Source of the DNA: a virus
Lineage: Duplodnaviria; Caudoviricetes
IMG/VR virus record: IMGVR_UViG_3300028591_000082
Length of the DNA stretch: 64,000 bases
Strand: one strand, 5' to 3'
The position numbers and the translations under genes were made by a program. Below the pieces are notes generated by a model. The model ran no database searches and was not told the origin of the DNA. It saw only the letters and a program-made list of their open reading frames with translations. Shown piece by piece: positions 5,365 through 26,288 of this stretch. The first letter of the stretch is position 1; every line of letters starts with the position of its first letter.

Positions 5365-5394
5365 AATTGTATCCTTAAAATTATCTTAAAGATT

Positions 5395-5469
5395 TGGGGG
5401 TGACAGGATTTGAACCTGCAAGTCTTCTGCTTCGTAGGCAGATGCATTATCCAATTTTGCTACACCCTC
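5395..5469 (-). tRNA. tRNA-Arg(ACG)
   Basis: cloverleaf; anticodon arm TCTGC-CTACGAA-GCAGA. Confidence 0.9.
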
Positions 5470-5474
5470 ATTTA

Positions 5475-5546
5475 TCGGTCTAACCAGAATTGAACTGATA
5501 TCCACTCCTTAGGAGGGAGTTATTCTATCCGTTGAACTATAAACCG
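5475..5546 (-). tRNA. tRNA-Arg(CCT)
   Basis: ACTCC-CTCCTAA-GGAGT. Confidence 0.9.
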
Positions 5547-5888
5547 TTATATATTTATAAGTCTTCTATAATCTTTAGAAAAACTTATCATTTCATTACT
5601 CCAAGAAAAACCATGTATTATTCCTTTTTGTCTAGGGTTAAGTCCTTCGTCAGAAAAATAAATCTGATATCCGTATTTTATCCAATTTTTATCATAACTA
5701 TATGATTCACTTTTTTCTACTTTTTCTATTTTTAATTTTTTATCGCACATTTCTTCCATTACTTCGTTAACTCCAAACATGGCAGAATGAGTTTCAAAAA
5801 AATTTTTTGATCTTATGTAAACATATTTACCAATAATATCATTTTCGTTTATTACTAGTAATTCATGATCGTCATATTTAACAAACAT
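5547..5888 (-). CDS. hypothetical protein with RLINI tail (start revised to MFVKY)
   Basis: upstream extension in the ORF track overlaps tRNA-Gln. Confidence 0.7.
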   Translation of the reverse strand: MFVKYDDHELLVINENDIIGKYVYIRSKNFFETHSAMFGVNEVMEEMCDKKLKIEKVEKSESYSYDKNWIKYGYQIYFSDEGLNPRQKGIIHGFSWSNEMISFSKDYRRLINI

Positions 5889-5890
5889 AT

Positions 5891-5979
5891 TTCTAGGGGC
5901 GGGATTCGAACCTGCACTAGCCAAAAGAGGCTAACCAGCTCCAAAGGCTGGGGTGGTACCAATTACACTTTACCCTAGA
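5891..5979 (-). tRNA. tRNA-Gln(TTG) with long variable arm
   Basis: CCAGC-CTTTGGA-GCTGG; U1-A72; extra stem TAGCC-TCTTTT-GGCTA. Confidence 0.8.
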
Positions 5980-7102: not shown

Positions 7103-7139
7103 ATAAAAAAAAGCCAAGACTATTAATAGTCTTGGCTAT
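7103..7139 (-). terminator. terminator closing tRNA block 1
   Basis: AGCCAAGACTA/TAGTCTTGGCT stem followed by a T run. Confidence 0.85.
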
Positions 7140-7141
7140 AG

Positions 7142-7212
7142 ACGCCCCTATGCGAATCGAACGCATCCTCTTGGTTTTGCAGACCAGTCACTACCCAGCA
7201 ATGTCAGGAGCG
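7142..7212 (-). tRNA. tRNA-Cys(GCA)
   Basis: loop CTGCAAA, U73; atypical D arm. Confidence 0.75.
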
Positions 7213-7325
7213 ATATTCCTACTCCGAAAAAGGCGCTGCACTCTTCGTCGGTTCGTTCTACTATAATTACAGGCAACTCTAGTGGTGCAGTGACCTGCTT
7301 CGTATATAGCGTCATTTTTCACTAG

Positions 7326-7398
7326 TGTGCCATAAGAGAGTTGAACTCTTTCTTGAAACTCCACAGGTTTCCGTGCAAAACCGTTACACTAATGGTAC
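7326..7398 (-). tRNA. tRNA-His(GTG)
   Basis: GAAAC-CTGTGGA-GTTTC. Confidence 0.85.
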
Positions 7399-7400
7399 AG

Positions 7401-7474
7401 TCGACAAGGTGGGATTCGAACCCACACAATTCACATTTTGAGTGTGACACGTATTCCAGTTCCATCACTTGCCG
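7401..7474 (-). tRNA. tRNA-Leu(CAA), short variable loop
   Basis: TCACA-CTCAAAA-TGTGA. Confidence 0.85.
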
Positions 7475-7481
7475 AAAAATA

Positions 7482-7553
7482 TTCCTCCGCTAGGATTCGA
7501 ACCCAGAACGATGCATTCAGAGTGCAATGTGTTACCAATTACACCACGGAGAA
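7482..7553 (-). tRNA. tRNA-Gln(CTG)
   Basis: TTGCA-CTCTGAA-TGCAT. Confidence 0.9.
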
Positions 7554-7554
7554 G

Positions 7555-7628
7555 TGAGCTCAAATGGAATTGAACCATCAACCCACGCCTTAAAAGGGCG
7601 TTGCTCTAACCAGTTGAGCTATGAGCCC
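7555..7628 (-). tRNA. tRNA-Lys(TTT)
   Basis: ACGCC-CTTTTAA-GGCGT. Confidence 0.92.
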
Positions 7629-7669
7629 ATATAGTAAGCGTTGCTTCGAAGACTCTACTTACTTTTTAG

Positions 7670-7743
7670 TCAGCCCGCTGGGATTTGAACCCAGAACCTT
7701 GTGCTTAAGAGGCACTCGCTCTACCAAGTTGCGCTACGAGCCG
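7670..7743 (-). tRNA. tRNA-Lys(CTT)
   Basis: GTGC-CTCTTAA-GCAC. Confidence 0.92.
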
Positions 7744-7750
7744 ATAATAG

Positions 7751-7825
7751 TGAACGACTGGGGAATTGAACCCCAAACCCCATGCTTAAAAGGCACGTGC
7801 TCTAACCAGGTTGCGCTAGTCGTCC
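7751..7825 (-). tRNA. tRNA-Lys(TTT)
   Basis: CGTGC-CTTTTAA-GCATG. Confidence 0.92.
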
Positions 7826-7888
7826 ATAGAATCAAATGTTTGTTCCATTTAACTGGGCACCTTCAATTCCAATGGACTGAGTTGAAGG

Positions 7889-8056
7889 TTATGCCCTCTG
7901 TTTCTCTTTCATTTGTTTACTAAATTCCTCTAAACGCTTTTTGCGTTTTTCTTCTCTAGATTCTTTACTGTTGCGAGCTTCAAGTGAAGACTTTATCATA
8001 GCCTCATATACTTTTTTAGCCATAGGGCCTTCTACTCTTGGTGCTCCACAATCCAT
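7889..8056 (-). CDS. small basic protein (start revised to MDCGAP)
   Basis: AAGGAG RBS; extension in the ORF track overlaps tRNA-Met. Confidence 0.55.
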   Translation of the reverse strand: MDCGAPRVEGPMAKKVYEAMIKSSLEARNSKESREEKRKKRLEEFSKQMKEKQRA

Positions 8057-8073
8057 AAAAATCTCCTTATTGC

Positions 8074-8145
8074 TGATGGGTAGAAGGATCGAACTTCTTT
8101 CAAACGGATATGAGCCGCTTATAATAACCATTATACTAACCCACC
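8074..8145 (-). tRNA. tRNA-Met(CAT), elongator (Ile2 not excluded)
   Basis: AGCGG-CTCATAT-CCGTT. Confidence 0.8.
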
Positions 8146-8152
8146 ATAATAG

Positions 8153-8225
8153 CCCAGACTCTAGGACTCGAACCTAGAACCATCTCGTCTTCAGCGAGCG
8201 GCGCTGCCAATTGCGCTAAGTCTGG
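8153..8225 (-). tRNA. tRNA-Phe(GAA)
   Basis: CTCG-CTGAAGA-CGAG. Confidence 0.85.
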
Positions 8226-8232
8226 ATATTAG

Positions 8233-8305
8233 TCCGCACTGAAAGAATCGAACTTTCGTTAATGGATTTTCAGTCCACCACCTTGACCACGTCGGTTAAA
8301 TGCGG
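8233..8305 (-). tRNA. tRNA-Phe(GAA)
   Basis: GTGGA-CTGAAAA-TCCAT. Confidence 0.85.
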
Positions 8306-8310
8306 ATAAT

Positions 8311-8382
8311 TACTGCGTATAGGAGTCGAACCTATCTAAGCCGTCTTGTAAGGGCGGAGTACAACCGATGTACCAACGCAGT
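8311..8382 (-). tRNA. tRNA-Val(TAC)
   Basis: CCGCC-CTTACAA-GACGG. Confidence 0.88.
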
Positions 8383-8389
8383 ATAAAAT

Positions 8390-8473
8390 AAAAAAGGCTT
8401 AGGAGTTAACCTAAGCCTATAATTCCACAATTAAACTATACGATTATGTCATATAGTTATGAACATAGGCTTA
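8390..8473 (-). terminator. attenuator 1: terminator plus mutually exclusive antiterminator
   Basis: terminator AGGCTTAGG-TTAACT-CCTAAGCCT-T5; TAAGCCTAT (8473-8465) can pair instead with ATAGGCTTA (8420-8412). Confidence 0.8.
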
Positions 8474-8541
8474 CTATGCTTAAACAACATACAATGTTTC
8501 TGTGAGAAAAATTTAAACTGTTTCACGAATTTCTTCAACAT
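8449..8541 (-). CDS. leader peptide 1, MLKKFVKQFKFFSQKHCMLFKHSKPMFITI
   Basis: AGGAG RBS; 30 codons; 21 of the first 22 are read by tRNAs of the downstream block. Confidence 0.8.
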   Translation of the reverse strand: MLKKFVKQFKFFSQKHCMLFKHSKPMFITI

Positions 8542-8570
8542 AGTAAACTCCTATAAAATTATCTTTATAT

Positions 8571-8644
8571 ATGCTCTGCAGGATTCGAACCTGCGTTGCC
8601 GCAAAAAATGCAGCTCAAGACTTTGACCTCTCGTCCAAGAGCAT
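8571..8644 (-). ncRNA. tRNA-like RNA without a canonical anticodon arm
   Basis: ATGCTCT/AGAGCAT acceptor; GCAGG-TTCGAAT-CCTGC T arm. Confidence 0.55.
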
Positions 8645-8665
8645 TACCTTTTTAATAAGGGGGAA

Positions 8666-8754
8666 CGGAGAGTACTGGATTCGAACCAGTGGAATCCCTT
8701 ACGAAACTCAACACCTTAGCAGGGTGCCGCTATCGACCACTCAGCCAACTCTCC
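8666..8754 (-). tRNA. tRNA-Ser(GCT)
   Basis: GCACC-CTGCTAA-GGTGT; long variable arm; G73. Confidence 0.92.
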
Positions 8755-9123
8755 AAAATTTTAATATATTTTTTTGGGTTACTGTAGCAGTCAGCCCAAT
8801 CTATTCTTAATTCCTTATAACCCTCTTCTAAAAGAAGAGAATCTTTTCTTTTGTCACAATCTTTTTGGTAATGCAATCTGCTGCATTACCATAAAATTCA
8901 AAAAAATTGATAAGGGTAAGCATTAACCTTATCTTCTCGACATATAGGTAATGAGTCACACTACCAAATATTATGCTTTAATAGTACGATACTATTTAGA
9001 CCCTAATGCTTTCAGGGAAGCACTAATAAACCCTTGCATTATTTATAGTAATACAAGAAACTAGAAACCATGTTTAATGCTCGGTTCCTTTCGTCAGCCA
9101 CCATCTCCCGATGGAATTTTTTA

Positions 9124-9196
9124 TTTCGGGGGTAGGATTCGAACCTACATAACGCGGGTTATGAGCCCGTGAACTAGCCATTAGTGATACCCCGAG
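9124..9196 (-). tRNA. initiator tRNA-fMet(CAT)
   Basis: GGG/CCC in the anticodon stem; C1xA72 mismatch. Confidence 0.88.
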
Positions 9197-9204
9197 TCGT
9201 AAAA

Positions 9205-9278
9205 AGTTGTAAATCGGATTTGAACCGACGACCTCGTCCTTGGCAAGGACACGCTCTAACCAACTGAGCTACTACAAC
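9205..9278 (-). tRNA. tRNA-Gly(GCC)
   Basis: TGTCC-TTGCCAA-GGACG; U73. Confidence 0.92.
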
Positions 9279-9281
9279 ATA

Positions 9282-9476
9282 TTAAAAACGATATCCGACA
9301 CAAACAAAAAAGTCAATAATATTTGAAATTCTGTCACACTCAAAATATCTTATTGCTTTACCGTTTTTTATCATACGGATAACTTGGTAGACATTAAATT
9401 TCTTATTGGGAAATTTATCTGCCCTATAAACAACATCTTTGAAATAATTCAAAGTTCTCAAATTATTAAAAAGCAT
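9282..9476 (-). CDS. hypothetical protein
   Basis: 64 aa; AGGGGA RBS. Confidence 0.5.
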   Translation of the reverse strand: MLFNNLRTLNYFKDVVYRADKFPNKKFNVYQVIRMIKNGKAIRYFECDRISNIIDFFVCVGYRF

Positions 9477-9488
9477 ATTTTCCCCTGC

Positions 9489-9767
9489 TTAATTAAATAT
9501 TTTTATAATATCAGAAACAAGTTCTGCTTTCTCTTTTCCAAAGATTTCGATAACTTCTTGTGGCAATTTTGCCTCTAATTCGATAAGACTGAAAGTTGTT
9601 TTATCGTCTTTATGAATTTCAACTTCCTTCTTGGTCATTCCAGCCTTTCGCATCTCTTTCCAATGATTTGCTGCATTAAGTCTATTGAACTGACCATTTT
9701 CGTCTTTTTCTAAATTATAGAGAAGATGACAAATTTCTTTGTTTGAAAGTTTCTCGGTTTCTAACAT
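9489..9767 (-). CDS. hypothetical protein
   Basis: follows the box promoter at 9814. Confidence 0.7.
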   Translation of the reverse strand: MLETEKLSNKEICHLLYNLEKDENGQFNRLNAANHWKEMRKAGMTKKEVEIHKDDKTTFSLIELEAKLPQEVIEIFGKEKAELVSDIIKIFN

Positions 9768-9828
9768 TTTTACTTCCTTCTATATATATTATACACCGAA
9801 AAACTGAATTCAGCAGGGTGCAAATTTT

Positions 9829-10299
9829 TTAATAATCGAAAACTTTTTTCTGCTTAGAGTACTCTAAGTTCGACTTAGAAGTATCTCCTTGCATTGTTGT
9901 ATTTATGATAGCACCTAACTCTTCCAATGGAAGTTTCTCTTCGTTTTCAGAATTCCATTTTTTGCATAAAGCGTAGTACTGTTTTAACATAGGAAGTATC
10001 TTCTTGTTGTATACAAGATAAATTGCTTTCTGTGTTTTATCGTCGTTCCAATTTGTATTGTTCGCAGAACCAGTTTTCTTTGCAAGAGAAACGACGCTTC
10101 TAAAAATTTCCTTTACTGTAGCTTGATCACTTTTAAAAAGCTGTTCCTTCATTTCTGCAAGGTCTTTATCAAGCTTCTTTAATGCATAAGTAAGTGTATC
10201 ATATATTTGACTTTCTTCAAGTATTTTAAGAGCCTCATTTTCGATCATAATTTCTTCGAATAAATCGGCTACCTCATTTATCAAATCATTAAGTTTCAT
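9829..10299 (-). CDS. hypothetical helical protein (start revised to MKLNDL)
   Basis: ORF track. Confidence 0.65.
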   Translation of the reverse strand: MKLNDLINEVADLFEEIMIENEALKILEESQIYDTLTYALKKLDKDLAEMKEQLFKSDQATVKEIFRSVVSLAKKTGSANNTNWNDDKTQKAIYLVYNKKILPMLKQYYALCKKWNSENEEKLPLEELGAIINTTMQGDTSKSNLEYSKQKKVFDY

Positions 10300-10319
10300 A
10301 AAATTAACTTTTTTAAATA

Positions 10320-11215
10320 AAGGCGAATATTTCGTCATTCGCATATGTTAGCGACTGCCCAAGTCCATCTTAACAAAACGCATTGGCTTCACTTTTCTCC
10401 ACTCTAGGCACCACAAGTAAGAGCCCCCAATGTTGTTTAGCATGTCTACCTTTGACAGTAGCAAGCACGACAATCCGTGCTCCACACTATGTTGGCTTTC
10501 AAGGAACTATCATAGGAATTATCTAGAATACCACACTTTCATTCCTTGCGTTAATTAACAATTCAACCAACAGAATTTGTTTTCCATTTCCGAATTACTT
10601 GGGAAACAACCTCTTTATCCGAAGACGAGAGGTTAGTATACAGGGTATTAAGGAGTCGAACCTTAACACGCCAAAACGCCTCAAGCAAGCTTGAAACACC
10701 TCGGCAACCACTTACCCTTACCATTTGCAAACAAGCTATACAATAATGTATTTAACCATTGCTGGCTTACAGAGGCTTACTGTAAATTAAGCTTGTCGAA
10801 TACCTTTTGTGCCAACCGAGTTGGCTACTGTGGTTGTTGATCTAATCTCACACAGCTTTTAATACCAAGAGTTTTCTGTCAGTTCAATAAAAGAACCTAT
10901 TGAAGTGGTATATTGGTAAACTCTTAACCGTTATTTGGCTTTCACGCTCTCTGTTTCAAGTACCACAGACATTGAGCTTTTGGAATGAGGAACTTCCTCA
11001 TGTTGCCACATAAACTTCAAACTTGCTTGCTATCCGATTTCCACGGACTACTAAACGCAATAGTTATGATCATAGGTATTCACGCCACCTTAGAATTTCC
11101 GACGGGTGTTTAGAACTTTTCCTTGTTCAATGGCGTAAATTTTATTTCTTTACGCAAGAATATATAAAGTTAGCCATTGGCACCGTTCACCAACATGATT
11201 AAGCTGCCTAGCATC
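10320..11215 (-). ncRNA. candidate large (~900 nt) structured ncRNA (copy B) with embedded tRNA-like domain at 10641-10718
   Basis: no ORF; many long-range helices (GCAAGCAAGTT/AGCTTGTTTGC, GAATACCT/AGGTATTC, CTGTGGT/ACCACAG, AAGAGTTT/AAACTCTT). Confidence 0.55.
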
Positions 11216-11217
11216 TG

Positions 11218-11379
11218 TTAAGGCTCCTTAGCACTAACTTCATTTCTAAATCCATAATAGTCAGCATATAAAGCCCACCATTCCTCTAAAGTTTTCTTTT
11301 GTTTTCTATATCGTAAATAGAAAAAGGCTCCAACTTCATGCTTCAAATCTTTTTCAAATTCCTTAATAGAAACTTCCAT
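11218..11379 (-). CDS. small hypothetical protein (53 aa, MEVSIKEFEKD...)
   Basis: translated by hand; below the ORF-track cutoff. Confidence 0.5.
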   Translation of the reverse strand: MEVSIKEFEKDLKHEVGAFFYLRYRKQKKTLEEWWALYADYYGFRNEVSAKEP

Positions 11380-11410
11380 TTATGTAAAATCGTTCCTATT
11401 AAGTAACTTT

Positions 11411-11484
11411 TAGTTCCTTGTGGGTTTGAACCACAGACCTTTCGGTTATCAGCCGAATGCTCTAACCAGCTGAGCTAAGGAACT
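11411..11484 (-). tRNA. tRNA-Ile(GAT)
   Basis: TTCGG-CTGATAA-CCGAA. Confidence 0.92.
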
Positions 11485-11539
11485 ATATACGGGCTGTTAA
11501 GAAGTCAAATCTTCCAAATAGCCGACAGACCAATAATGA

Positions 11540-11643
11540 CGGGGAACGCCTGAATCGAACAAGGCACCTCAAAAATCTCTCATCAATGAATTACAGAGCA
11601 AGACATCAACAAGAGTAGCGTACTACCATTATACGAATTCCCC
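11540..11643 (-). ncRNA. tRNA-like RNA with a 12-bp stem replacing the anticodon arm
   Basis: GGGGAAT/GTTCCCC acceptor; D arm CGTA/TACG; TTCGATT T loop. Confidence 0.55.
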
Positions 11644-11888
11644 AAAAAAACATACTACTTGCCAAAGTAGTTTCAGATGCAGGTGTTGCATCCGTTGATT
11701 ACCGAGAAAATCCTTATCGGACTGCACTGGATTCCAACTTGTCACCAATAACTCAACTTAACGCTCGTCAAGCCTAGTGCCCAGCCTTTCGGGGTACCTT
11801 GGGACGTCTCCCTCAAAACGGTACTTACTACGATTATCTACTTTCTCAGTCAAAGGTTGTCGTCCTGGCAACATCAACTAATGTTTAG

Positions 11889-11960
11889 CGGGCTCTGCTG
11901 GAGTCGAACCAGCCCACGCAGATTAACAGTCTGCAGTACTAACCGATATACGAAAAGCCC
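11889..11960 (-). tRNA. tRNA-Asn(GTT)
   Basis: GCAGA-CTGTTAA-TCTGC. Confidence 0.92.
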
Positions 11961-12154
11961 AAAAACTGCGATGTTGTGGCTATCCGCCTGCCTTTATCAT
12001 GTCTGCAAATTTCCCTGAGTTAAATTTGCTTTATTTAGGTGGAATGAGAACCACCACTACCTTTACAGGGTAGCACGCACAGTCTAATTCGTCAAACTAC
12101 TTTAAGCGCTATTTTCATTTAACTACTACCTGGCGACTTGTTAAATGCGATTCG

Positions 12155-12228
12155 TCTGTATGGTAGGATTCGAACCTACGGAATCTTGCTCCCAAAGCAA
12201 GTGGATTAGACCGCTCTCCCACACACAG
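12155..12228 (-). tRNA. tRNA-Pro(TGG)
   Basis: CTTGC-TTTGGGA-GCAAG. Confidence 0.9.
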
Positions 12229-12394
12229 ATAGCTAATTGCAAAATACTATATAGCTCATAATAATGTACATTTATGCCCGCAGTTTCGAGATTAATCCTA
12301 AGTCAGTACTATTCTTCCCAACTCGTATAGTTCGTCACACTTAGAAACAAATTAAGCGGCTATGAACTACTTCTCCCATATTTTGCAATTATAG

Positions 12395-12466
12395 AGCCTC
12401 CACTAGGAATCGAACCCAGATTCCGAGATTACAAATCACGTGTACTAACCGTTATACGATAGAGGC
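12395..12466 (-). tRNA. tRNA-Thr(TGT)
   Basis: CGTGA-TTTGTAA-TCTCG. Confidence 0.85.
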
Positions 12467-12555
12467 ATATTTGGTGAACCTGATTTCAGACTTCCCACCA
12501 AGAAGCCGCGATTTCAGACAGAACAGAGCACGCTTCAGATCAATCTCTGTCGTCG

Positions 12556-12636
12556 TGGAAGATATCAGAATTGAACTGATCTTTACTCGTCCCTTCCATT
12601 GTAGGCTTTAAGACGAGCCTCACCATAAGATCTCCC
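12556..12636 (-). ncRNA. tRNA-like RNA with enlarged anticodon domain
   Basis: GGGAGAT/ATCTTCC acceptor; ATCAG-TTCAATT-CTGAT T arm; CTCGTCTT/AGGGACGAG stem. Confidence 0.5.
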
Positions 12637-12639
12637 AAA

Positions 12640-12888
12640 TTATATATAAGTTCCTCTTTTAAAAGGAAGTTTAACATCTATATGTTCAGCAATAAGAGCA
12701 GCTTCTCCTAAATGCCCAACTACTCTTATTTCGGAAAACCTTTTTGCTTTATCTTTAAGGCATTTTGGAACTTCCACAGTAAAAGTTCCTTTTTTCTCGC
12801 CATCAATATCATAGCAAAGTGATATTTTATCGCCTTCTACATTAACAACTTTTCCTTCCAAAATAAAAGAATTAAGATTTCTTCTCAT
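12640..12888 (-). CDS. short SSB-like OB-fold protein
   Basis: NLNSFILEG...IRVVGHL...IAEHID resembles short SSB paralogs (recalled from spirochaetes, not searched). Confidence 0.5.
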   Translation of the reverse strand: MRRNLNSFILEGKVVNVEGDKISLCYDIDGEKKGTFTVEVPKCLKDKAKRFSEIRVVGHLGEAALIAEHIDVKLPFKRGTYI

Positions 12889-12889
12889 A

Positions 12890-12962
12890 TAGTCCCGAGA
12901 GGAGTTGAACCTCCGTCTCCTCCTTGAAAGGGAGGCGATACTAACCGTTGATCTACGGGACC
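12890..12962 (-). tRNA. tRNA-Glu(TTC)
   Basis: CCTCC-CTTTCAA-GGAGG. Confidence 0.9.
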
Positions 12963-13032
12963 ATAAAACCCTTTTGAGACCAGAAGCACCGCGAAAAGTC
13001 CGCGCCTTACGCTCACAGATCTCTGAGGGTTA

Positions 13033-13105
13033 CATTCCTTGCAGGAATTGAACCTTGCGTTTGTTGCTTGAGAGGCAACTGTCCTTACCATTAGACGAAA
13101 GGAAC
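13033..13105 (-). tRNA. tRNA-Glu(CTC), bulged T-stem
   Basis: GTTGC-CTCTCAA-GCAAC. Confidence 0.8.
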
Positions 13106-13112
13106 ATAAGAA

Positions 13113-13206
13113 TTACCAACTTAAGGACTTGAACCCTAATCCCGCGCCCCTTTTTCCCGCGACCCCACACGGATTTGCTGTCCTTTAGTGAGATCGTTTA
13201 TCGGTA
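13113..13206 (-). ncRNA. tRNA-like RNA (acceptor and T arm only recognisable)
   Basis: TACCGAT/GTTGGTA; TTAGGG-TTCAAGT-CCTTAA. Confidence 0.4.
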
Positions 13207-13384
13207 CTAGGGGGCACTGTGCCCTGTACACCACTTGATAATGAGCTTCCAAAATTAGCCAGCTTCGCTACAGAAACTCCAGTTGTTTCGTTTGCAACCG
13301 AAAAACAACCTTTTTACATACTTTTTATTCGTAAGTATCAAAACGAGTTAGTTTCCGATTTACTTAAACTAACAAATAAGGTGA

Positions 13385-13457
13385 CGGTCTGTGCGAGAGT
13401 TGAACTCGCCATCTCCGCAGTGACAGTGCGGCGTGATAACCGATACACTAACAGACC
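13385..13457 (-). tRNA. tRNA-Asp(GTC)
   Basis: CCGCA-CTGTCAC-TGCGG. Confidence 0.92.
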
Positions 13458-13475
13458 ATAAAATCATTTCTTTTA

Positions 13476-13547
13476 TATCCCAACTAGGATTCGAACCTAG
13501 ATCTCCACTCTTAACGAGCAGAATGCTAACCGTTACACCATTGGAAC
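13476..13547 (-). tRNA. atypical tRNA, nominal anticodon TTA
   Basis: full cloverleaf; loop CGTTAAG (G33, possible C32-G38 pair). Confidence 0.55.
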
Positions 13548-13806
13548 AACCTAAACTAGTAAGAGGGTTAACGCGTATTTCTCTTAGTCGGCTTGAGCAG
13601 GGAAAAGAAAATATGCTCGTGCCTACTAGTTTGGTAGTTAATTAGTCACGCAGACGGCATTTGCCGACACTTCTGGTTTGCCAACTACCTATGCTCACGG
13701 ACTCTAACCGTTTCTTAGTGCATTGAAGTTACAAGTAAGTTTTCCTTACTCTTATATTATACACCGTAAATCTGAATTTAACAGGGTGCATAATTTTTTG
13801 GTTTCG

Positions 13807-13880
13807 TGGAGCGGGGGAGCATCGAACTCCCAACCTCATGATTGCAAATCACGTATTCTAGCCAATTGAACTACCGTCCC
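13807..13880 (-). tRNA. tRNA-Ala(TGC)
   Basis: G3-U70; loop TTTGCAA. Confidence 0.9.
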
Positions 13881-14036
13881 AAATAAAGTGATCTTTTGGT
13901 ATCATACATACAGATACATTATAGCAGGTAATCACATTGAGTTTTTGCAATACAAACAAAAACAACCTTTAGTTCATGTAGTTAGACTTCTACCAACTAA
14001 TCTCGTTCTCCTAGTGTCTAATTCAAACGAGCGGCT

Positions 14037-14125
14037 CGGTTGGATGGAGAATCGAACTCCAGCTACGCTCATCACGCAGGACAATTTTCAAGATTGCTAC
14101 CCATGCCAACTAGGTGTTCCCAACC
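14037..14125 (-). tRNA. tRNA-Ser(TGA)
   Basis: GCAAT-CTTGAAA-ATTGT; long variable arm. Confidence 0.85.
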
Positions 14126-14211
14126 ATTATTCAAACAAAAGAACCTAGTAAAGCATCACGGTACCATTGCAACAATGCATAACGACTTATATACTGATCC
14201 CTTTGTTTTAA

Positions 14212-14293
14212 TGGGCAGTGGAGGACTCGAACCTCCAAGGCACAAAGGCGACAGGGTTACGGCCTGCTCAGCTACCATTACTGTCAACTACCC
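14212..14293 (-). tRNA. tRNA-Tyr(GTA)
   Basis: GCAGG-CCGTAAC-CCTGT (C33). Confidence 0.85.
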
Positions 14294-14602
14294 ATAATGT
14301 CCGATGCGGAGTAGCCGCTTTAAAGGCGCTCGTTGTACACGCACCTAGCTTGCAAGGTCTGGGTTGTTATTCAAAACAGATAGTAATTAGGATTTCTACT
14401 ATCACCTTTACTGGTAGGTACAAGCCGCTAAACTTGCAGTCCTCGCCTTGGCAGTTCTCGGGAAGAGGAGTGCCCCCTTAACCCGCATACTTTTAGTAAC
14501 TACTGCTTAAATTTTCTCTTTAGTTTTTTAACCTTGACATAAGCCAAGGTAGGCTAGACTATCCCTACTCGCTTAGCCTAGCTGGGTCAGAACACACCCG
14601 TT

Positions 14603-14848
14603 TTAGTCAAAATAATACCAATCACCTCTCGGTGAAGGTAAACCTTTTAAGAGATATCTTTCAATCTCTTCGTCTGTACAATCTATAGAAATTTTATTTA
14701 ATTCAGATTTCTGTAGATTTCTTCTCTGCTTACGCTGTTCTGCATGAAAACCTACTACTGATCTTCTGTAGTAACGGTAAGTATATCTCTTTCTTCTTGT
14801 ACAACCACGAGTTCCGTGATCTTGCTTATTAGGTTTATTTTTATACAT
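14603..14848 (-). CDS. small Arg-rich basic protein
   Basis: ORF track; AAGGAG nearby. Confidence 0.6.
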   Translation of the reverse strand: MYKNKPNKQDHGTRGCTRRKRYTYRYYRRSVVGFHAEQRKQRRNLQKSELNKISIDCTDEEIERYLLKGLPSPRGDWYYFD

Positions 14849-14880
14849 AACCTAAGTCATAAGCAACTCCTTTAATTTAG

Positions 14881-14954
14881 TCGGCGTGAGAAGATTTGAA
14901 CTTCCACTTTACAGATTCTAAGTCTGCTCCCTCTACCAGTTGGGGTACACACCG
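14881..14954 (-). tRNA. tRNA-Leu(TAG), short variable loop
   Basis: GCAGA-CTTAGAA-TCTGT. Confidence 0.85.
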
Positions 14955-15042
14955 ATAATCACATTCGTTAGGTAGAATGTGGTAGACCACGCCATGCTTA
15001 CGAATGGCAATTATCCTTAGATACTTCCGTCTAAGTCGGATT

Positions 15043-15126
15043 TGCCAAGAGAGGGACTCGAACCCACAAACTCTTACGAGCACAGCCACCTCAAGGCTGC
15101 GTGTTTACCAATTTCACCATCTAGGC
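15043..15126 (-). tRNA. tRNA-Leu(GAG)
   Basis: CAGCC-TTGAGGT-GGCTG. Confidence 0.9.
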
Positions 15127-15194
15127 ATATAAAAGGGTAAAGCGTGTTAGGCTTCCCCTTAATGATTAAGCTCTTGGCAAAACCATCTCTCTTG

Positions 15195-15278
15195 TCGGCC
15201 TGGAGAGACTCGAACTCTCAATCCTTACGGCGTCCGATCTTAAGTCGGATGTGCATACCAAAATTCCACCACAGACCG
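15195..15278 (-). tRNA. tRNA-Leu(TAA)
   Basis: TCCGA-CTTAAGA-TCGGA. Confidence 0.9.
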
Positions 15279-15335: not shown

Positions 15336-15392
15336 AAAAAAGGCTTCTGAGTTTTAACATCAGAAGCCTTAGAATTCGAAATTAAGACTTCT
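15336..15392 (-). terminator. attenuator 2: terminator plus antiterminator
   Basis: terminator AAGGCTTCTGA/TCAGAAGCCTT-TTTT; AGAAGTCTTA, starting at the leader stop, can pair instead with TAAGGCTTCT. Confidence 0.8.
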
Positions 15393-15487
15393 CATGTTAG
15401 ATATGGTTCGTCTGCATCATTATATAATGATGTTGCGAGAGAATTAAGAGAAATAATAGAACTGTAAGTAATAATATTCTTTTCCAT
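15392..15487 (-). CDS. leader peptide 2, MEKNIITYSSIISLNSLATSLYNDADEPYLT
   Basis: TAAGGT RBS; lies between a consensus promoter and the attenuator; codons match downstream tRNAs. Confidence 0.8.
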   Translation of the reverse strand: MEKNIITYSSIISLNSLATSLYNDADEPYLT

Positions 15488-15529: not shown

Positions 15530-15558
15530 ATTATAACATTAAAAAATAAAAATGTCAA
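15530..15558 (-). promoter_or_regulatory. consensus sigma70 promoter
   Basis: TTGACA-17 nt-TATAAT with TG extension; the same class occurs at ~21482-21510, 24633-24661, 63757-63785, 63873-63901. Confidence 0.85.
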
Positions 15559-16216: not shown

Positions 16217-16290
16217 TGGCGCTGACAGGGCTCGAACCTGCATAAATCTGATTAGAAGTCAGAGTGGCATCCAGTTGCCTACACAGCGTC
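16217..16290 (-). tRNA. tRNA-Arg(TCT)
   Basis: TCTGA-CTTCTAA-TCAGA. Confidence 0.88.
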
Positions 16291-16502
16291 AAAAAAGCCA
16301 AACCTCCTACTTGCCGCCCCCTCGTGTTTATACTCACGAATTATTCAAGGACTTATCGCAGATCCTATAAAGTGCGCACGGATCCGCGGGGTTAATCAGG
16401 TCTGTTCCTCAAAAGTGCCGAGCACTCTCTTGAATGCGACCCTGTTCTACACTTGGCTTACATTTATAAGGAATTGTTCTAGAATTTTCCATATAAACAT
16501 AG

Positions 16503-16573
16503 AGGTTCAGGTGGGAGTCGAACCCACATTTCCGACATACTCGTCAGCGTTCTTACCATTAAACTACTCAACC
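16503..16573 (-). tRNA. tRNA of undetermined identity (6-nt anticodon loop GAGTAT)
   Basis: good D and T arms; defective anticodon loop. Confidence 0.5.
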
Positions 16574-16678
16574 ATAAGAAGGGCTCATTTTAATCACCAC
16601 AGTGTCATTGCCCTTCGCCCATATATTTATACTGCGTTGTGGCTCTTTGCAGTTTATAAGTAGACTTGCTACTCATAG

Positions 16679-16752
16679 TCCTCCCAGATGGAATTGCACC
16701 ACCGACCAACGGCTTATAAGGCCGCTGCTACTAACTGCTGAGCTATGGGAGG
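16679..16752 (-). tRNA. tRNA-Ile(TAT)
   Basis: GCGGC-CTTATAA-GCCGT; T loop TGCAATT. Confidence 0.8.
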
Positions 16753-16845
16753 AAAAAATTAACTTCCTTATATATATATTATACACCCTAAAACTAAGTT
16801 TAACAGGGTGCATAAATTTTTGGTTTCAAAAACAAATAATAAGGT

Positions 16846-17154
16846 TTACTTATTATCAGAATTTTCTGTAACATCTTGGTAGTTCATTTCGATTTGAGTA
16901 TTAACTTCTGTAGTTCTAGTATAGTTAATATTCTTCATTGCTACAGCAAAATTTACATCATAGCATTTCTGACAATTATAAGCCGCAACCATACTTCCAA
17001 CAGAAGCAAGTAAACAAACTCCAAGACCAGCCAATACTCCTTTCCATTTTAAACTTTCATCAACCGCTTTAATTCCAATATAAATTAAAACTACAACTAA
17101 TGGTATGATAAAAAATACCGACACAACTACCCAAAGACATGCCGCTCCAGTCAT
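16846..17154 (-). CDS. two-TM membrane protein (start revised to MTGAAC)
   Basis: two hydrophobic segments; AAGGAG RBS. Confidence 0.65.
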   Translation of the reverse strand: MTGAACLWVVVSVFFIIPLVVVLIYIGIKAVDESLKWKGVLAGLGVCLLASVGSMVAAYNCQKCYDVNFAVAMKNINYTRTTEVNTQIEMNYQDVTENSDNK

Positions 17155-17253
17155 AAAATCTCCTTCAAGTGATGAATAAAATATTCTCAAAAAAAATATT
17201 TTATTCATCACTTGATGATATAATTATATCACCAAGTGATTTTTTTGTAAATA

Positions 17254-18342
17254 CTACTGAGAAGTAGCTTCCTTAATCAGACTATCAAGCCCAAGAACTT
17301 TCAAGTCGTTAGAAGTAATAACCTTTGGAAGATTGATGCTTTCCAAAGCCCTTGCTCGAATCTTAATAGCTTCAGCCTCGGCTTCACCTTTAAGTTTCAA
17401 GTTTGCGATTTCCTGCTCTTTCTGTTTACGAGCCAACTCTATGTTGGAAGTCTGAGCCAAAATCTGCTGCTCTGATACAGTAGTTCTCGCCTGTGCTTCA
17501 CGATTTTTTCGTTCTGCTTCAATTCGCTCAGTTTCAAGTTTCTGTAGTTCTATCTCATTACGCTTTTTCTGAACTTCTGCATCCTGCCTCTTTTTCTCCG
17601 TTTCTACCTGTGCAGCAAGTTTAGCCTGCTCGTCCATCTGATTTTGTAGAGTAGCATCGTCTGGTATCATACCATTCCAAACAGCAAGGTTATCAATAGT
17701 TATACCAAATTCTTCAGCCCAAACTTTAATATTTTCTATAGCGGCTGCTACAATTTCATCACGATTAGGTAGCACATCTTTGTATTCGTATTTATGAAAT
17801 TCTTTAGATAATTCTGCGGCTACAACATTCTTAAACTGGTTATTCGCTACATTTTCGGGCGAACTTATCATTTTAGATTTAGTACCCTTTACTTCTATAT
17901 CTGCAGGGAATTTAGACAAAAACCTTCCAGAATCTGCAGGCGTTACACGAATAGCATATTTCATAGGAACAGTAAATCCCTGACTACCTTTTGTTTCAAC
18001 TTTTATATCATCTTCCCAAGTACCAGTAATAGGGGAATTAGAAACTGCAACAACCTTTAATTTAGAAATATATTTACCAGTACCACGCATTCGCCCCGTC
18101 TTTACCCACTTATGAGGAATCTGAACGAGCTTTTCGTTTAAAAGATGGCTCTTGTAATAATCTTCTGAAGTCAAAGTTGCCTGAGCACTTTGATCATTTT
18201 CAGCAAAAAGGTCAATTACGAATGCGGTTTCATTCGTATCAATCTGAACATACTCTGGTTTGTCATATGGTTTAATGAACAAACAAGAGCTAAACAAAAA
18301 TGTTGCAGTAAACAACATCAACACCAAAAATAATTTTTTCAT
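17254..18342 (-). CDS. SPFH/band-7-like lipoprotein
   Basis: signal peptide with lipobox (FSSC); FGITIDNL SPFH-like core; C-terminal coiled coil with GEAEAEA. Confidence 0.7.
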   Translation of the reverse strand: MKKLFLVLMLFTATFLFSSCLFIKPYDKPEYVQIDTNETAFVIDLFAENDQSAQATLTSEDYYKSHLLNEKLVQIPHKWVKTGRMRGTGKYISKLKVVAVSNSPITGTWEDDIKVETKGSQGFTVPMKYAIRVTPADSGRFLSKFPADIEVKGTKSKMISSPENVANNQFKNVVAAELSKEFHKYEYKDVLPNRDEIVAAAIENIKVWAEEFGITIDNLAVWNGMIPDDATLQNQMDEQAKLAAQVETEKKRQDAEVQKKRNEIELQKLETERIEAERKNREAQARTTVSEQQILAQTSNIELARKQKEQEIANLKLKGEAEAEAIKIRARALESINLPKVITSNDLKVLGLDSLIKEATSQ

Positions 18343-18348
18343 TAGGTT

Positions 18349-18657
18349 TTATTCTCCTTCCCTAAAAATTTTAATAATTTTTAATACATTTTTAACAAAA
18401 ATGTATACAACTGCTATCCAAAGCAATAAAGCCAAGAAAGCAAACAAAGAAGTAAGACTATCTTGATTGTTAATAACAAACTCAGAAAGATAGAGAGGTA
18501 CTTCTTTATTTAATCGTTGGATTTCAAGTTCTCCTGCTGCTTGATTTATTATAGTCGCAAAAAGACCACGAGCAAGATATGTAAACTTTATCGCTAAGAA
18601 TAAAAAAGCTTCTTTGATAACTAAGCCAATAGACCTAGTTGCAATTTCTTTAACCAT
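18349..18657 (-). CDS. two-TM membrane protein (start revised to MVKEIA)
   Basis: GGAG RBS; extension in the ORF track overlaps tmRNA. Confidence 0.65.
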   Translation of the reverse strand: MVKEIATRSIGLVIKEAFLFLAIKFTYLARGLFATIINQAAGELEIQRLNKEVPLYLSEFVINNQDSLTSLFAFLALLLWIAVVYIFVKNVLKIIKIFREGE

Positions 18658-18681
18658 TTTATTCTCCGTATATTTAATGTA

Positions 18682-19051
18682 TGGAGGTGCCGAGATTCGA
18701 ACTCGGGTCTTCACCAATTACTATATTAAACACTTCTATACAGGCTTAAAGTCATATTATTGCTTGGAATGACTAATACCATAAAATCTTTAACCTTATC
18801 ATTTAGCCAAAGGATTTGCAGACTTTGATCGCTAAACTATTCCGTTCGTTTACACGCCTTCTAACATCTATAACAGAAAGGAACTGTAAGAAGACGGCTA
18901 GGCTCACGCAGTCCTAGCAAGTTTGAGGTGCTTACGCAGCCATCAAAACTTCTTCGTAGTCGTTGTCGATTACTTTTTTGCCATTTCAAACCATGACTGG
19001 TTATGTACCTGATGTTCAATTTTTCATTGTGAATCGATACCGTTCACCCCC
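18682..19051 (-). ncRNA. ssrA: tmRNA; tag (A)GKKVIDNDYEEVLMAA
   Basis: 5' GGGGGTGAACGGTATCGA; 3' GAAGACCCGAGTTCGAATCTCGGCACCTCCA (G3-U70); internal tag frame ending LMAA-TAA. Confidence 0.93.
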
Positions 19052-19213
19052 GAAAAATTATTCTTTGCTTGTAGCAATATTTATTGCTTCTTGTAATGTT
19101 TTTGTGTATCTATATACACCTTTATAGTGAATGCAAGCGAGATATTTGCCAGGTGTTTTCCATACTTCCCAACAACCATATCTTGCAATAAATTTCCAAT
19201 ACATATTTGCCCT

Positions 19214-19402
19214 CTATTCTTCGTCAAAAATTCTTCTACTACAAGAAAATAAATCTTCTCTTTCTATATCTTTAACAGAAGATAATAAGAATATATATGC
19301 AGATACTTTATCTGTTATTATTCCTTTTTTTCTAAAGTTTTTCCCTTTCTTTACGAGTCTGTTAAATTTTATTTTTTTGAAAAAATCTTTAATAAAATTC
19401 AT
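19214..19402 (-). CDS. hypothetical protein
   Basis: GAGGA RBS. Confidence 0.55.
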   Translation of the reverse strand: MNFIKDFFKKIKFNRLVKKGKNFRKKGIITDKVSAYIFLLSSVKDIEREDLFSCSRRIFDEE

Positions 19403-19406
19403 AATA

Positions 19407-19595
19407 TTATCCTCTCCACATCTTTTGAATGTGAGTATCTGGAATATCTAATTCAAGTATCTTTTTTGCAGCTTCTTTAATTGTTTTAAATTGCAAAGCT
19501 TTTTCGGGGTCATATGTTCTAAATCCATTTTCATCTGCTACATATTCATACATATTTTTTGGATAATTATATTCTATAACATAAAAACTTTTCAT
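19407..19595 (-). CDS. hypothetical protein
   Basis: follows the box promoter at 19641. Confidence 0.65.
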   Translation of the reverse strand: MKSFYVIEYNYPKNMYEYVADENGFRTYDPEKALQFKTIKEAAKKILELDIPDTHIQKMWRG

Positions 19596-19677
19596 ACAAA
19601 TCCCTTATACTAATATTATATCACGAAAATATTATTTAAACAGGGTGCAAATTTTTTACTTTTGAAAATAATTTGTG

Positions 19678-19932
19678 TTATTCAACTAAAGCCATTTCAC
19701 AATAATTACTGAATATTCTCCAAGCCATATAATATTTTCTCTTTGCTTCCCGACATTGTTCTTCATTAGACTTTCTTATATCTTCAATCCTCATCATTGT
19801 TAAAGGATATTTTCCAGTTTCATCAGGTAAATATACATTGTTCTTCTTTTTTATTTTCTCATATTCTTTTTTTGCTTCAATGTATTTAATATGAGCTTTT
19901 CTATATTTTTTAAAAAATTTAGTTTTTTCCAT
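19678..19932 (-). CDS. hypothetical protein (start revised to MEKTKF)
   Basis: GAGG RBS. Confidence 0.6.
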   Translation of the reverse strand: MEKTKFFKKYRKAHIKYIEAKKEYEKIKKKNNVYLPDETGKYPLTMMRIEDIRKSNEEQCREAKRKYYMAWRIFSNYCEMALVE

Positions 19933-20068
19933 ATTTTTACCCTCGAAATAATTTGTGTAGTGTAGCCACCACCGCGAAGCGTATATACACAAAATGACCC
20001 TTGCTTTAACAAGGGTCATTTTTAAATGCGACTAATTTAATGCTAAGTGAGAAATCTGTTTTGCAAGA

Positions 20069-21160
20069 TTATTCATTCGCCTTGCCTTTCTTTGAATCCT
20101 TCTCAAACGCCTTGAGTAAGAGAATTGAAGTGAGCGCATTCTGATCTTTGCCGCCCATACCCTGAAGAGCAAGCAAAGGAAGGAGGTCGTCTTTGTCTCC
20201 TTTTCCGTCGAGCAACATGAGTGGCAGCAATCCATTTAAACCTCCTTCGCCAAACTTTCCACCATTAGCCATGCTGAGCATAGCCATTGTCTTTACGTCA
20301 AATTCACCATCGCCAAGTAACATTGCTGCTGCCATTGGGTTGTTGTTGATGCCCATTGAACCGAGCATCTGTGCCTGGATAAGACCCTTTGTATCGATCT
20401 TACCATCTGTTCCGAAGAGCGGCTTGTAAACAATTACCTTGTCTGTCATTGGAATTGAAGAAACAAGAATCTGTGCAACAATACCAGTATCAAGATTGAT
20501 TACTTCGTTGTCGGCTCTTGCGAAGAAGAGTGATTCACCATCAGAGTAGTAAACACCCTTCGTGATCTTGTCAGCAACTGTTGGAACAAGTGCTGGAATA
20601 TCCTTCAAAAGTACAAACTGTGGCAGAATTTCTGCAGCAGCACCTGCTTCATTGATGTACTTGTACTTTCCATTTACTGCGAAAGCAAGCTTCTTGTCAA
20701 ATGTGATAACACCTTTGATCATGTTAAAATTCATTGTGGACTCCTTCTTGATTGATTTCTTTTCGATTGTTGGTGCACGTCTTGGTGCAGCCTTTACTGG
20801 TTCTTGGTCAGCAAAAATTGGGTCGCCATATTCTGGGGCTTCTGTGTCAAGGCTAGAAATATCTCTTTTAAGAGAACCTACATCATAACGAATTTCCTTG
20901 TAAGAATCGATTGTGTAGATATCTACTTCATCGCCATTGCTGTTGTATGTTCTACCAACAGCCTTGAACTTTGGGTTAACTGCCGAGAAGTAAAGCTCAA
21001 CATCACGAGCTGTGTTAAGTCTTACACCCCATTTTGAATCACCAACAAGCTGTACCTTAAAGTAACCTGAATATGCTTTGATATGTGCACGAGTTACATT
21101 GTTAATGCACTCTGCAGCATCAGGTACCTTAAACTTCTGTTTTTGTGGTTCGTAAGTCAT
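20069..21160 (-). CDS. hypothetical protein with Met/Leu/Gly-rich C-terminal repeats (start revised to MTYEPQ)
   Basis: AAGGAGGT RBS; extension in the ORF track overlaps tRNA-Glu. Confidence 0.8.
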   Translation of the reverse strand: MTYEPQKQKFKVPDAAECINNVTRAHIKAYSGYFKVQLVGDSKWGVRLNTARDVELYFSAVNPKFKAVGRTYNSNGDEVDIYTIDSYKEIRYDVGSLKRDISSLDTEAPEYGDPIFADQEPVKAAPRRAPTIEKKSIKKESTMNFNMIKGVITFDKKLAFAVNGKYKYINEAGAAAEILPQFVLLKDIPALVPTVADKITKGVYYSDGESLFFARADNEVINLDTGIVAQILVSSIPMTDKVIVYKPLFGTDGKIDTKGLIQAQMLGSMGINNNPMAAAMLLGDGEFDVKTMAMLSMANGGKFGEGGLNGLLPLMLLDGKGDKDDLLPLLALQGMGGKDQNALTSILLLKAFEKDSKKGKANE

Positions 21161-21195
21161 AAAAACGAATACCTCCTTTTTTGATATAAATTTTC

Positions 21196-21270
21196 CATTC
21201 CCTGCAGGAGTTGAACCGTACATCTTAGTCCTGAGAAGACTTTGTCCTATATCCGTTAGACGAAGGGAAC
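21196..21270 (-). tRNA. tRNA-Glu(CTC), bulged T-stem
   Basis: loop TTCTCAG. Confidence 0.75.
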
Positions 21271-21372
21271 ATAAACATAACCCTTTCAAAACATACGACG
21301 GATCACTAGAAAACCTTGCCAGGCAAGGGAAAGCATTACTTCCTCCCCGTACTAGTCTCTGAGGGTTAATGA

Positions 21373-21445
21373 CATTCCTTGCAGGATTTGAACCGTGCTT
21401 TTATTGCCTGAGAAGCAATCGTCCTAGCCATTAGACGAAAGGAAC
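21373..21445 (-). tRNA. tRNA-Glu(CTC), bulged T-stem
   Basis: ATTGC-TTCTCAG-GCAAT; identical to the copies at 22022 and 22346. Confidence 0.8.
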
Positions 21446-21561
21446 ATAAAAATTTTTTTGATTTTTTGTTGTTATACTTAAATTATAACATGAAATATGA
21501 TTTTTGTCAAGTTCGTTACCAAACTTTATGTGAAATATTTTTTGATTTTTTTCATAATTTC

Positions 21562-21634
21562 CATTCCCTGCAGGAATTGAACCGTACATCATTTGCCTGA
21601 GAAGCAACCGTCCTTACCATTAGACGAAGGGAAC
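21562..21634 (-). tRNA. tRNA-Glu(CTC), bulged T-stem
   Basis: loop TTCTCAG. Confidence 0.78.
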
Positions 21635-22021
21635 ATAAAACTGATAGTTTATCGGTCACTATCAAACGAGTAATGTTTTTTTAACGGTACAAAACACCAC
21701 CAAGAAGACAATTACTGCCATACCAGCCAGCAGTAAACATATACTGTATTGCTGGTACATACAGCAACGACGGCTTTACTATTATAAAGGCTGAAGCTAA
21801 GCCTACCTATCATTTATGTCGTAGTAGGTGACGAAGATATTTAATCTAGAATATCCCAAGAAGGTATTTTGACCTGAAATACCCAAAACAGGACTTGCTG
21901 TCGTTAGTCCACGGATTTTTAAAGGGTTAACTCCCGACCTCTTTTTTAAGTGGTTGTTCCCACTTCTTTTCTAAATCTTTTTTGAGAGCAGAACCCTCTA
22001 AAAGATATTTTATAAAAAAGA

Positions 22022-22094
22022 CATTCCTTGCAGGATTTGAACCGTGCTTTTATTGCCTGAGAAGCAATCGTCCTAGCCATTAGACGAAAGGAAC
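22022..22094 (-). tRNA. tRNA-Glu(CTC), bulged T-stem
   Basis: identical copy. Confidence 0.8.
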
Positions 22095-22345
22095 ATAAAA
22101 CCCTTTTGAAACCAAACGCAAGATCACGGGTCTAAGCATAAGTGACCTCCCTTGCAAATCTCTAAGGGTTTAAATTGTAAGCCTTTAACGATTAAAACTT
22201 ACTAAAACGGTTAGCCTGTTTTTATACAGTCCCTACTTCATTGACTGCCCAGTTTTACGCAAACCTGTCGACATTTGGGAGCTTGCAACTTTTTGTTTTC
22301 GATCGAAAAGTAAAACGCCATTTTTTAACAGAAATGATAACTTTT

Positions 22346-22418
22346 CATTCCTTGCAGGATTTGAACCGTGCTTTTATTGCCTGAGAAGCAATCGTCCTAG
22401 CCATTAGACGAAAGGAAC
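22346..22418 (-). tRNA. tRNA-Glu(CTC), bulged T-stem
   Basis: identical copy. Confidence 0.8.
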
Positions 22419-22975
22419 ATAAAATCGCAAGTACTGTACACATACTCGCTTGTGGGCAATCCCATTGTATAGTCGGTCTACCACCATTATGTCTACTGTA
22501 AATCTCAAATCAGTTACCGATACAAATTTTCATGTTATCAAATTTGTTAAAGTTAGCCCAAACCGTACTTGGACAGTCAGCAAGCCATTCCTCTAATAAA
22601 GCACTTAATAGCTTCGTTAAGCCTGACATTTAGTGAGTGTCTTAGGACACCATTGTCAATGGCATCCTTGCTGTCTTTTTTTGTTTTCTCTAATTTCATA
22701 ATTTGCAGGATATTCTATATAATGTTACCAACGAACTTTCTTCATAATGAAACTCCTTTAGTGTATTTTAAAAAGACAGTTTCGAGTCAAAAGCAAATGA
22801 AAATAATAGAATTGCCCAAACTCTAACTGTCTTTTATTTTTCTTTTTTCAATCGCTTTCGCTAAGGATGCCTTACTGTGAGATTGTCCCTTAGGTACTTA
22901 CTTGCTGAACTAGGTTTTAATACCCTGTACTACCTAACAGCCATAAAACCGTTTCCAATTAAATGTACAAATTCA

Positions 22976-26286: not shown

Positions 26287-26288
26287 AT

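Follow-up and report, generated by a model that had tools for sequence, protein, structure and literature searches.

Eleven tRNA genes of a large uncultured phage lie behind a short leader ORF whose codons are almost exactly those read by the same tRNAs, and we consider it very probable that this arrangement (cassette 1) is a ribosome-mediated transcription attenuator giving feedback on the tRNA pool. We observe its sequence anatomy, its codon match, the conservation and covariation of its parts and the folds predicted for its RNA; we infer that the leader is translated, that its translation is coupled to transcription, that polymerase reads through and that a depletion of tRNAs is what naturally trips the switch, and there are no expression data. 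The window, by which we mean the whole 64,000-nucleotide (64-kb) stretch that was analyzed, stems from a 222-kb metagenomic contig with small genes, ~40 tRNAs, a tmRNA, a CCA-adding-type enzyme and an RNA ligase. Relatives of this phage were found among viral contigs of IMG/VR (219 kb and 386 kb) and among pig-gut contigs; matches to cultured phages were limited to single tRNAs.

Cassette 1 consists of the following parts, for which counts of seven orthologues refer to the window plus six close orthologues:

8548..8552, minus strand: ribosome-binding site AGGAG, 6 nt before the ATG, invariant in 7 orthologues
8449..8541, minus strand: leader ORF 1, 30 codons, with codons 2-22 as the sensing stretch; open in 7/7 orthologues
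8536..8547, minus strand: segment 1, the start-codon region, partner of 8482-8470 in the ribosome-free RNA (predicted fold)
8465..8473, minus strand: segment 2, antiterminator strand TAAGCCTAT, codons 23-26, forming 9 pairs with segment 3
8434..8458, minus strand: 10-bp hairpin with the stop codon inside, nested in the 2:3 loop (predicted fold)
8389..8420, minus strand: segments 3:4, predicted intrinsic terminator with a 9-bp stem of about -14 kcal/mol and a U-tract
7141..8383, minus strand: gated tRNA block 1 (ARAGORN)
7103..7137, minus strand: predicted closing intrinsic terminator of block 1, stem 7137-7112

Much of this had been proposed in a sequence-only reading of the same DNA, and its inventory was borne out. 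AGGAG (8552-8548) and the 30-codon ORF (8541-8449) are present with exactly the codons quoted, as are the terminator after the leader (stem 8418-8395, U-tract 56 nt beyond the leader stop codon) and the one that closes the block (7137-7112). The strand formed by codons 23-26, TAAGCCTAT (8473-8465), is perfectly complementary to ATAGGCTTA (8420-8412), and ARAGORN returned the identical set of 11 tRNAs: Val(tac), Phe(gaa) twice, Met(cat), Lys(ttt) twice, Lys(ctt), Gln(ctg), Leu(caa), His(gtg) and Cys(gca). Absent from that reading were the stop-codon hairpin, the start-codon helix, the operon-internal position of the leader and a 55-aa ORF in the block (8056-7889), which has no Pfam or PHROG match. 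Downstream of leader 1 there are thus 11 tRNA genes and one 55-aa ORF, with no biosynthetic enzyme or synthetase. Between the His and Cys genes lies a non-tRNA segment of 110 nt (7213-7322), 95% identical in L019 and without an Rfam match. The exact terminator sequence found no match among viral contigs.

Under strict wobble rules and with the start codon excluded, 20 of the 21 codons at positions 2-22 of leader 1 are read by block 1 tRNAs, against 25.7% expected from the long ORFs of the window (P=2.5e-11). The match claimed earlier is therefore real, but its count of 21 of the first 22 codons included the start codon, and 20/21 is the fair figure. Among ~128,000 six-frame windows of 21 codons in the 64 kb, leader 1 scored best; scores of 18 to 20 came only from its ORF, and the next best elsewhere was 17. 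No shuffle reached 20/21 (0/200,000, whether mononucleotide or codon-position preserving), the other two frames of leader 1 scored 5 and 2, and only 4 of 125,970 random sets of eight amino acids did as well on this leader. The proposed match down to synonyms held in part. TTG makes up 16% of Leu codons in the window, and TTG-only usage in leader 1 has a probability of 0.026; CAG, at 56%, is the majority Gln codon, so that exclusive CAG (probability 0.31) was rejected as evidence of synonym choice. Given the amino acids, two TTG, two CAG and the GTG together have a probability of ~0.0035. The codon match is very unlikely to be due to chance and the architecture is real, while the switch is without experimental data.

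The 185-nt leader 1 region folds at z=-4.4. Four helices are predicted: the start-codon helix (8547-8536/8482-8470), the antiterminator (8473-8465/8420-8412), the 10-bp stop-codon hairpin, which draws segments 2 and 3 together in the predicted fold, and the terminator (8418-8395). We folded nascent RNAs that ended at the 5' arm of the terminator and were masked through 10 nt past the A site of the ribosome. Folding with and without the ribosome footprint, a check proposed in the earlier reading, gave the position dependence expected of an attenuator: the antiterminator formed with a probability of >0.9 when the A site was at codons 1-21 and of <0.1 at codons 22-25, then partly returned at codons 27-30 and stood at ~0.3 at the stop codon. 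The boundary coincides with the end of the codon match at codon 22, and in orthologues with a 2-codon insertion the limits of fold and match both shift to 23.

At equilibrium, the terminator was the favored fold of full-length RNA of the window wherever the ribosome was placed, and the switch must therefore be kinetic, with 2:3 forming first. A start-codon helix of the 1:2 type exists and the full-length minimum free energy structure is terminated, yet naked nascent RNA is likewise predicted to form the 2:3 antiterminator, so that classical super-attenuation is not predicted. As modeled, the device looks like a detector of a late ribosome, whose default without translation may be read-through. 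The earlier comparison with trp/his-type geometry applies to the layout of an attenuator, but here the antiterminator strand is part of the ORF, and antitermination is predicted for untranslated nascent RNA too.

In the mechanism that we propose, RNA polymerase would make the leader RNA and a ribosome would translate it. With fast decoding of codons 2-21, the ribosome would cover segment 2 from codon 22 on while segment 3 emerges, the 3:4 terminator would form, and the eleven tRNA genes would remain untranscribed. A shortage of any of the tRNAs for Val, Phe, Met, Lys, Gln(CUG), Leu(CAA), His or Cys would make the ribosome lag, segments 2 and 3 would pair while segment 4 has yet to be made, and polymerase would enter the block, whose tRNAs would then relieve the stall as negative feedback. 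The leader peptide itself probably has no function. Transcription-translation coupling is an assumption here because the host has not been identified: matches to a GGDEF protein of a relative reached merely 26-40% and were scattered over many phyla, and the presence of a FlaA domain in L006, a distant locus, is a hint of a spirochaete host but too little to assign one. A stall caused by amino acid starvation, one trigger that had been suggested, would trip the switch as well; extra tRNA cannot cure starvation, however, and we therefore infer that tRNA loss through cleavage, decay or dilution is the more sensible signal. Nothing singles out the anticodon nucleases that had been named as another trigger, and the loss may stem from such nucleases, from a general decay of tRNAs during infection or from high demand.

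Leader 1 is operon-internal and does not stand at the 5' end of a transcript. Two elements lie upstream:

9788..9821, minus strand: nearest candidate promoter upstream of leader 1, a GCACCCTG-N20-TATAAT motif; promoter function inferred
8570..8644, minus strand: degenerate tRNA-like element directly before leader 1; role inferred

The motif at 9788..9821 is ~1.25 kb before leader 1, and two ORFs and the genes for tRNA-Gly, -Met and -Ser would be transcribed first. Throughout the window, GCACCCTG-N20-TATAAT occurs in 37 copies between 433 and 56600 (e.g., 9788, 13756 and 16778), where 0 are expected; it probably represents a class of phage promoters dependent on an activator or sigma factor that the phage itself encodes, although promoter function is an inference. 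The acceptor and T arms of the degenerate tRNA are invariant while its anticodon arm drifts (orthologues are called Lys, Phe, Cys or Met), which suggests, again by inference, a role as a processing site.

A second cassette in the window has the same design:

15530..15558, minus strand: perfect sigma-70-type promoter of cassette 2 (12/12 plus TG)
15392..15487, minus strand: leader ORF 2, 31 codons, matching block 2 in its codons
15335..15392, minus strand: predicted switch of cassette 2, made up of the terminator (15370-15341) plus U-tract and an antiterminator strand located at the stop codon (15392-15384)
8665..15278, minus strand: tRNA block 2 (Leu x3, Tyr, Ser x2, Ala, Asp, Glu x2, Thr, Pro, Asn, Ile, Gly, Met)

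The tRNA-Tyr of block 2 (14213-14293) was identified by eye and then matched by comparison. Of the 30 codons of leader 2, block 2 reads 25 under strict wobble and 29 at the amino acid level; block 1 reads 1. The codon table is thus partitioned between the two leaders along the lines of their blocks (20/21 versus 1/30; Fisher P=5.5e-12). Within the tRNA region, cassettes 1 and 2 are the only places where an RBS-bearing small ORF precedes a strong terminator, and the distances from stop codon to U-tract are 56 and 53 nt, respectively. Promoter motifs inside block 2 (13756 and 9788) could bypass cassette 2. A tRNA-like gene at 13475-13548 received the call Stop(tta) and its orthologue in L051 (92% identity) the call Tyr(ata), so that this is probably an element in drift rather than an ochre suppressor.

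Further tRNA genes and a set of tRNA maintenance and repair genes that flank the tRNA region lie outside both blocks:

5394-5979 and 16217-26360: tRNA genes belonging to neither block (Arg x3, Gln(ttg), Ile(tat), Glu(ctc), Gly(tcc), Trp)
18682-19051: phage tmRNA
3095-4489: CCA-adding-type nucleotidyltransferase with HD domain
29484-30746: RNA ligase

No leader-terminator cassette was found in front of the outlying tRNAs (5394-5979, 16217-26360). The CCA enzyme had no relative among the viral contigs searched. About five near-identical tRNA-Glu(CTC)-like copies cluster at 21180-22419, with a further copy at 13032. Long stretches amid the tRNAs are free of ORFs (10320-11215 and 22400-24900), and weak matches to drum RNA occur at 10864-10965 (E 0.25) and at L017:6765-6914 (E 0.0018).

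Leader 1 has six orthologues (L008, L009, L013, L019, L020 and L021) that retain the RBS, the frame and 9/9 antiterminator pairs, with a spacer that varies. The 9-bp antiterminator helix is invariant in 7/7, which demonstrates conservation and not covariation. An equivalent of the start-codon helix is predicted in the orthologues; as inspected by eye, a U-A pair located 4 nt before the ATG has changed to C-G. In the distant relative L017, segments 2, 3 and 4 read AAGTCT, AGACTT and AAGTCT where the window has AAGCCT, AGGCTT and AAGCCT, a matched change. The leader codons also move with the tRNAs, if imperfectly, a point that the earlier reading had put forward for checking in related phages. 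Block 1 of the six orthologues lacks tRNA-Val and codon 6 is ATG instead of GTG, a position that is also a conceivable alternative start. A prediction set beforehand, that Val codons should then turn up in leader 2, was met in the pig-gut relative L051: Val codons are missing from the sensing stretch of leader 1, block 2 contains Val(tac) and Gly(tcc), and leader 2 contains three Val codons and GGG. This Val result is modest, given that 3 Val in 37 codons would occur by chance in ~36% of cases. In L017, Leu(taa) and Gln(ttg) follow a leader that uses TTA three times and CAA, and the leader of L006, rich in Ser, Pro, Tyr, Leu and His codons, gates tRNAs for those residues. Tracking is incomplete, however: the L017 leader retains Lys, Phe and His codons and leader 2 of L051 retains Ala, Asp and Ile codons, whereas no such tRNAs were found at these loci. 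Between the two tRNA-Phe genes of block 1, the pig-gut relatives L008, L009, L013 and L051 carry a DUF559-like nuclease ORF, probably a homing endonuclease, which is absent in the window, L019, L020 and L021.

Two further viral genomes were selected solely by homology to an SPFH protein, whose gene is not adjacent to tRNAs in L001-L003. They carry 40 and 44 tRNAs and contain seven strong terminators directly before tRNA blocks, each with an upstream ORF of 24-49 codons that matches the composition of the block; for one weaker hairpin before a Leu tRNA in these genomes, no clear leader was found. The cultured phage phiCbK has two cassettes, one headed by gp083 and the other by an unannotated ORF, and in both a terminator and a matching tRNA block follow. 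The unannotated ORF (L142:4142-4240, record ~51341-51439) has 32 codons, is rich in Gln, Val, Ile and Arg, and precedes a terminator and a Phe-Val-Ile-Gln block. Pattern searches based on structure alone gave 28 hits, 4 of which had tRNA arrays behind them, in two lineages. A fold test on 13 cassettes found no switch in G001_d and a weak one in L017_B.

The permutation of leader codons against anticodon sets, another check proposed earlier, was passed over the same 13 cassettes: the summed own-block z was 55.5 versus 6.7 ± 7.1 for permuted pairs (0/200,000). This P value is optimistic, as the ORFs were hand-chosen from candidate lists and some cassettes are homologous. Left out were redundant leader-1 orthologues, L005, whose cassette stands before a block truncated at the end of the contig (P=0.39), and L026/G005, with a weak match (P=0.06). 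The same data bear on the possibility, which we regard as unlikely, that the switch senses overall ribosome lag or failed initiation, as in shut-off of host translation or uncoupling, with a codon inventory that serves merely for tuning or is in part a relic. A pure speed sensor would need no block-specific codons, yet 9 of the 13 leaders rank their own block first and the other 4 rank it second, and the match reaches the level of isoacceptors (102 synonymous choices observed versus 77 expected of 142; z=4.5, with the codon usage of this window as an approximate background). General lag would nevertheless account for the antitermination predicted for untranslated nascent RNA, for leader codons whose tRNAs have gone from the block, and for the sampling of most block tRNAs by merely 1-6 scattered codons without runs.

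Less likely still is a post-transcriptional role of leader translation, in processing or stability of the precursor, or a peptide acting in trans, with an incidental or leaky terminator. Against it, a strong terminator lies 51-75 nt beyond the leader stop codon in 13/13 cassettes and a complementary strand sits where the codon match ends. It can point to the position of leader 1, operon-internal and directly behind a possible processing site, and to partial conservation of the peptide (F-K-x-H, K-P); the conserved K-P-M codons, however, are the antiterminator strand itself, and peptides of different cassettes have no sequence in common. An ordinary small AT-rich phage ORF before a constitutive terminator, with a chance match and a block transcribed by leak-through, has next to no standing: Lys, Phe and Met codons are AT-rich and phage tRNA regions hold many small ORFs, but window scan, shuffles and permutation all reject it statistically, and the pattern recurs in the second cassette and in unrelated phages.

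Attenuation by a lagging ribosome, as first proposed from the sequence, is thus supported by codon match, position-dependent folding, conservation, cassette 2, an advance prediction and blind replication, with translation, read-through and trigger remaining inferences. It is conceivable, though we would put it at somewhat under an even chance, that phages widely survey the host tRNA pool at isoacceptor resolution, each block being transcribed only when its own codons decode slowly, and that tRNA-cleaving defenses thus switch on the tRNAs that neutralize them. The reason why phages carry tRNAs has been open for >50 years (PMC10264068). If they are gated by decoding speed, phage tRNAs would be an on-demand reserve, which favors replacement of depleted tRNAs over constant codon compensation. 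Attenuation would also extend from enzymes to adaptor RNAs, as a direct feedback loop. A leader-reporter fusion could show which tRNAs run short in infection or upon activation of defense, phiCbK on Caulobacter offers a laboratory model, and the leaders could be used as compact multicodon sensors.

Our literature search found no description of an attenuator that controls tRNA genes, although most subscription papers were outside its coverage. Phage tRNAs replace host tRNAs cut by anticodon nucleases (PMC10264068; for PARIS/AriB, PMC12409363); this supply is a likely purpose of the gated tRNAs, but those studies concern tRNA function, and no cis-acting control of phage tRNA expression is described in PMC10264068. 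The trn operon of Anabaena is a horizontally spread tRNA array that is silent until translational stress (PMC8421152, PMC10272220) and is controlled by the RHH repressor TrcR (PMC10272220); neither "attenuat" nor "leader" occurs in the text of PMC8421152. It resembles the phage cassettes as a stress-gated tRNA array and differs from them in its use of a repressor protein.

T-boxes bind uncharged tRNA directly, without a ribosome. They share with the phage leader the decision between terminator and antiterminator by tRNA status, whereas the phage leader would use a ribosome and did not match the Stem I/specifier/T-box model of Rfam. A T-box was rejected as an identity for the element, as Rfam models yielded neither a T-box nor any other cis-element, whether at the gathering score or with E relaxed to 5. 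The pheM-pheST attenuator of Escherichia coli controls a synthetase through a single amino acid, Phe. Here too a leader attenuates translation machinery according to the level of charged tRNA, but the output of pheM-pheST is a synthetase and that of the phage cassette is the tRNAs themselves.

Leader attenuators of amino acid operons include trpL, hisL and pheL of E. coli and the multivalent thrL and ilvGMEDA leaders. Like trpL, hisL and pheL, the phage cassette has a short translated ORF (translation being inferred for the phage), control codons and a 2:3 antiterminator opposed to a 3:4 terminator (both predicted for the phage), with stalling that would free segment 2; for pheL, the mechanism is described in PMC3082878. 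Unlike them, the phage leader is phage-encoded and operon-internal, gates tRNA genes instead of enzymes, and samples 8 amino acids and 9 anticodons by scattered codons where theirs have runs for 1-3; its segment 2 lies inside the ORF, and super-attenuation is not predicted for it. By analogy, the phage cassette comes closest to the multivalent thr/ilv leaders and pheM-pheST without being a strict member of either group. What is new in the proposed tRNA attenuator, for which experimental data are lacking, is that a known type of switch has been placed over tRNA genes.
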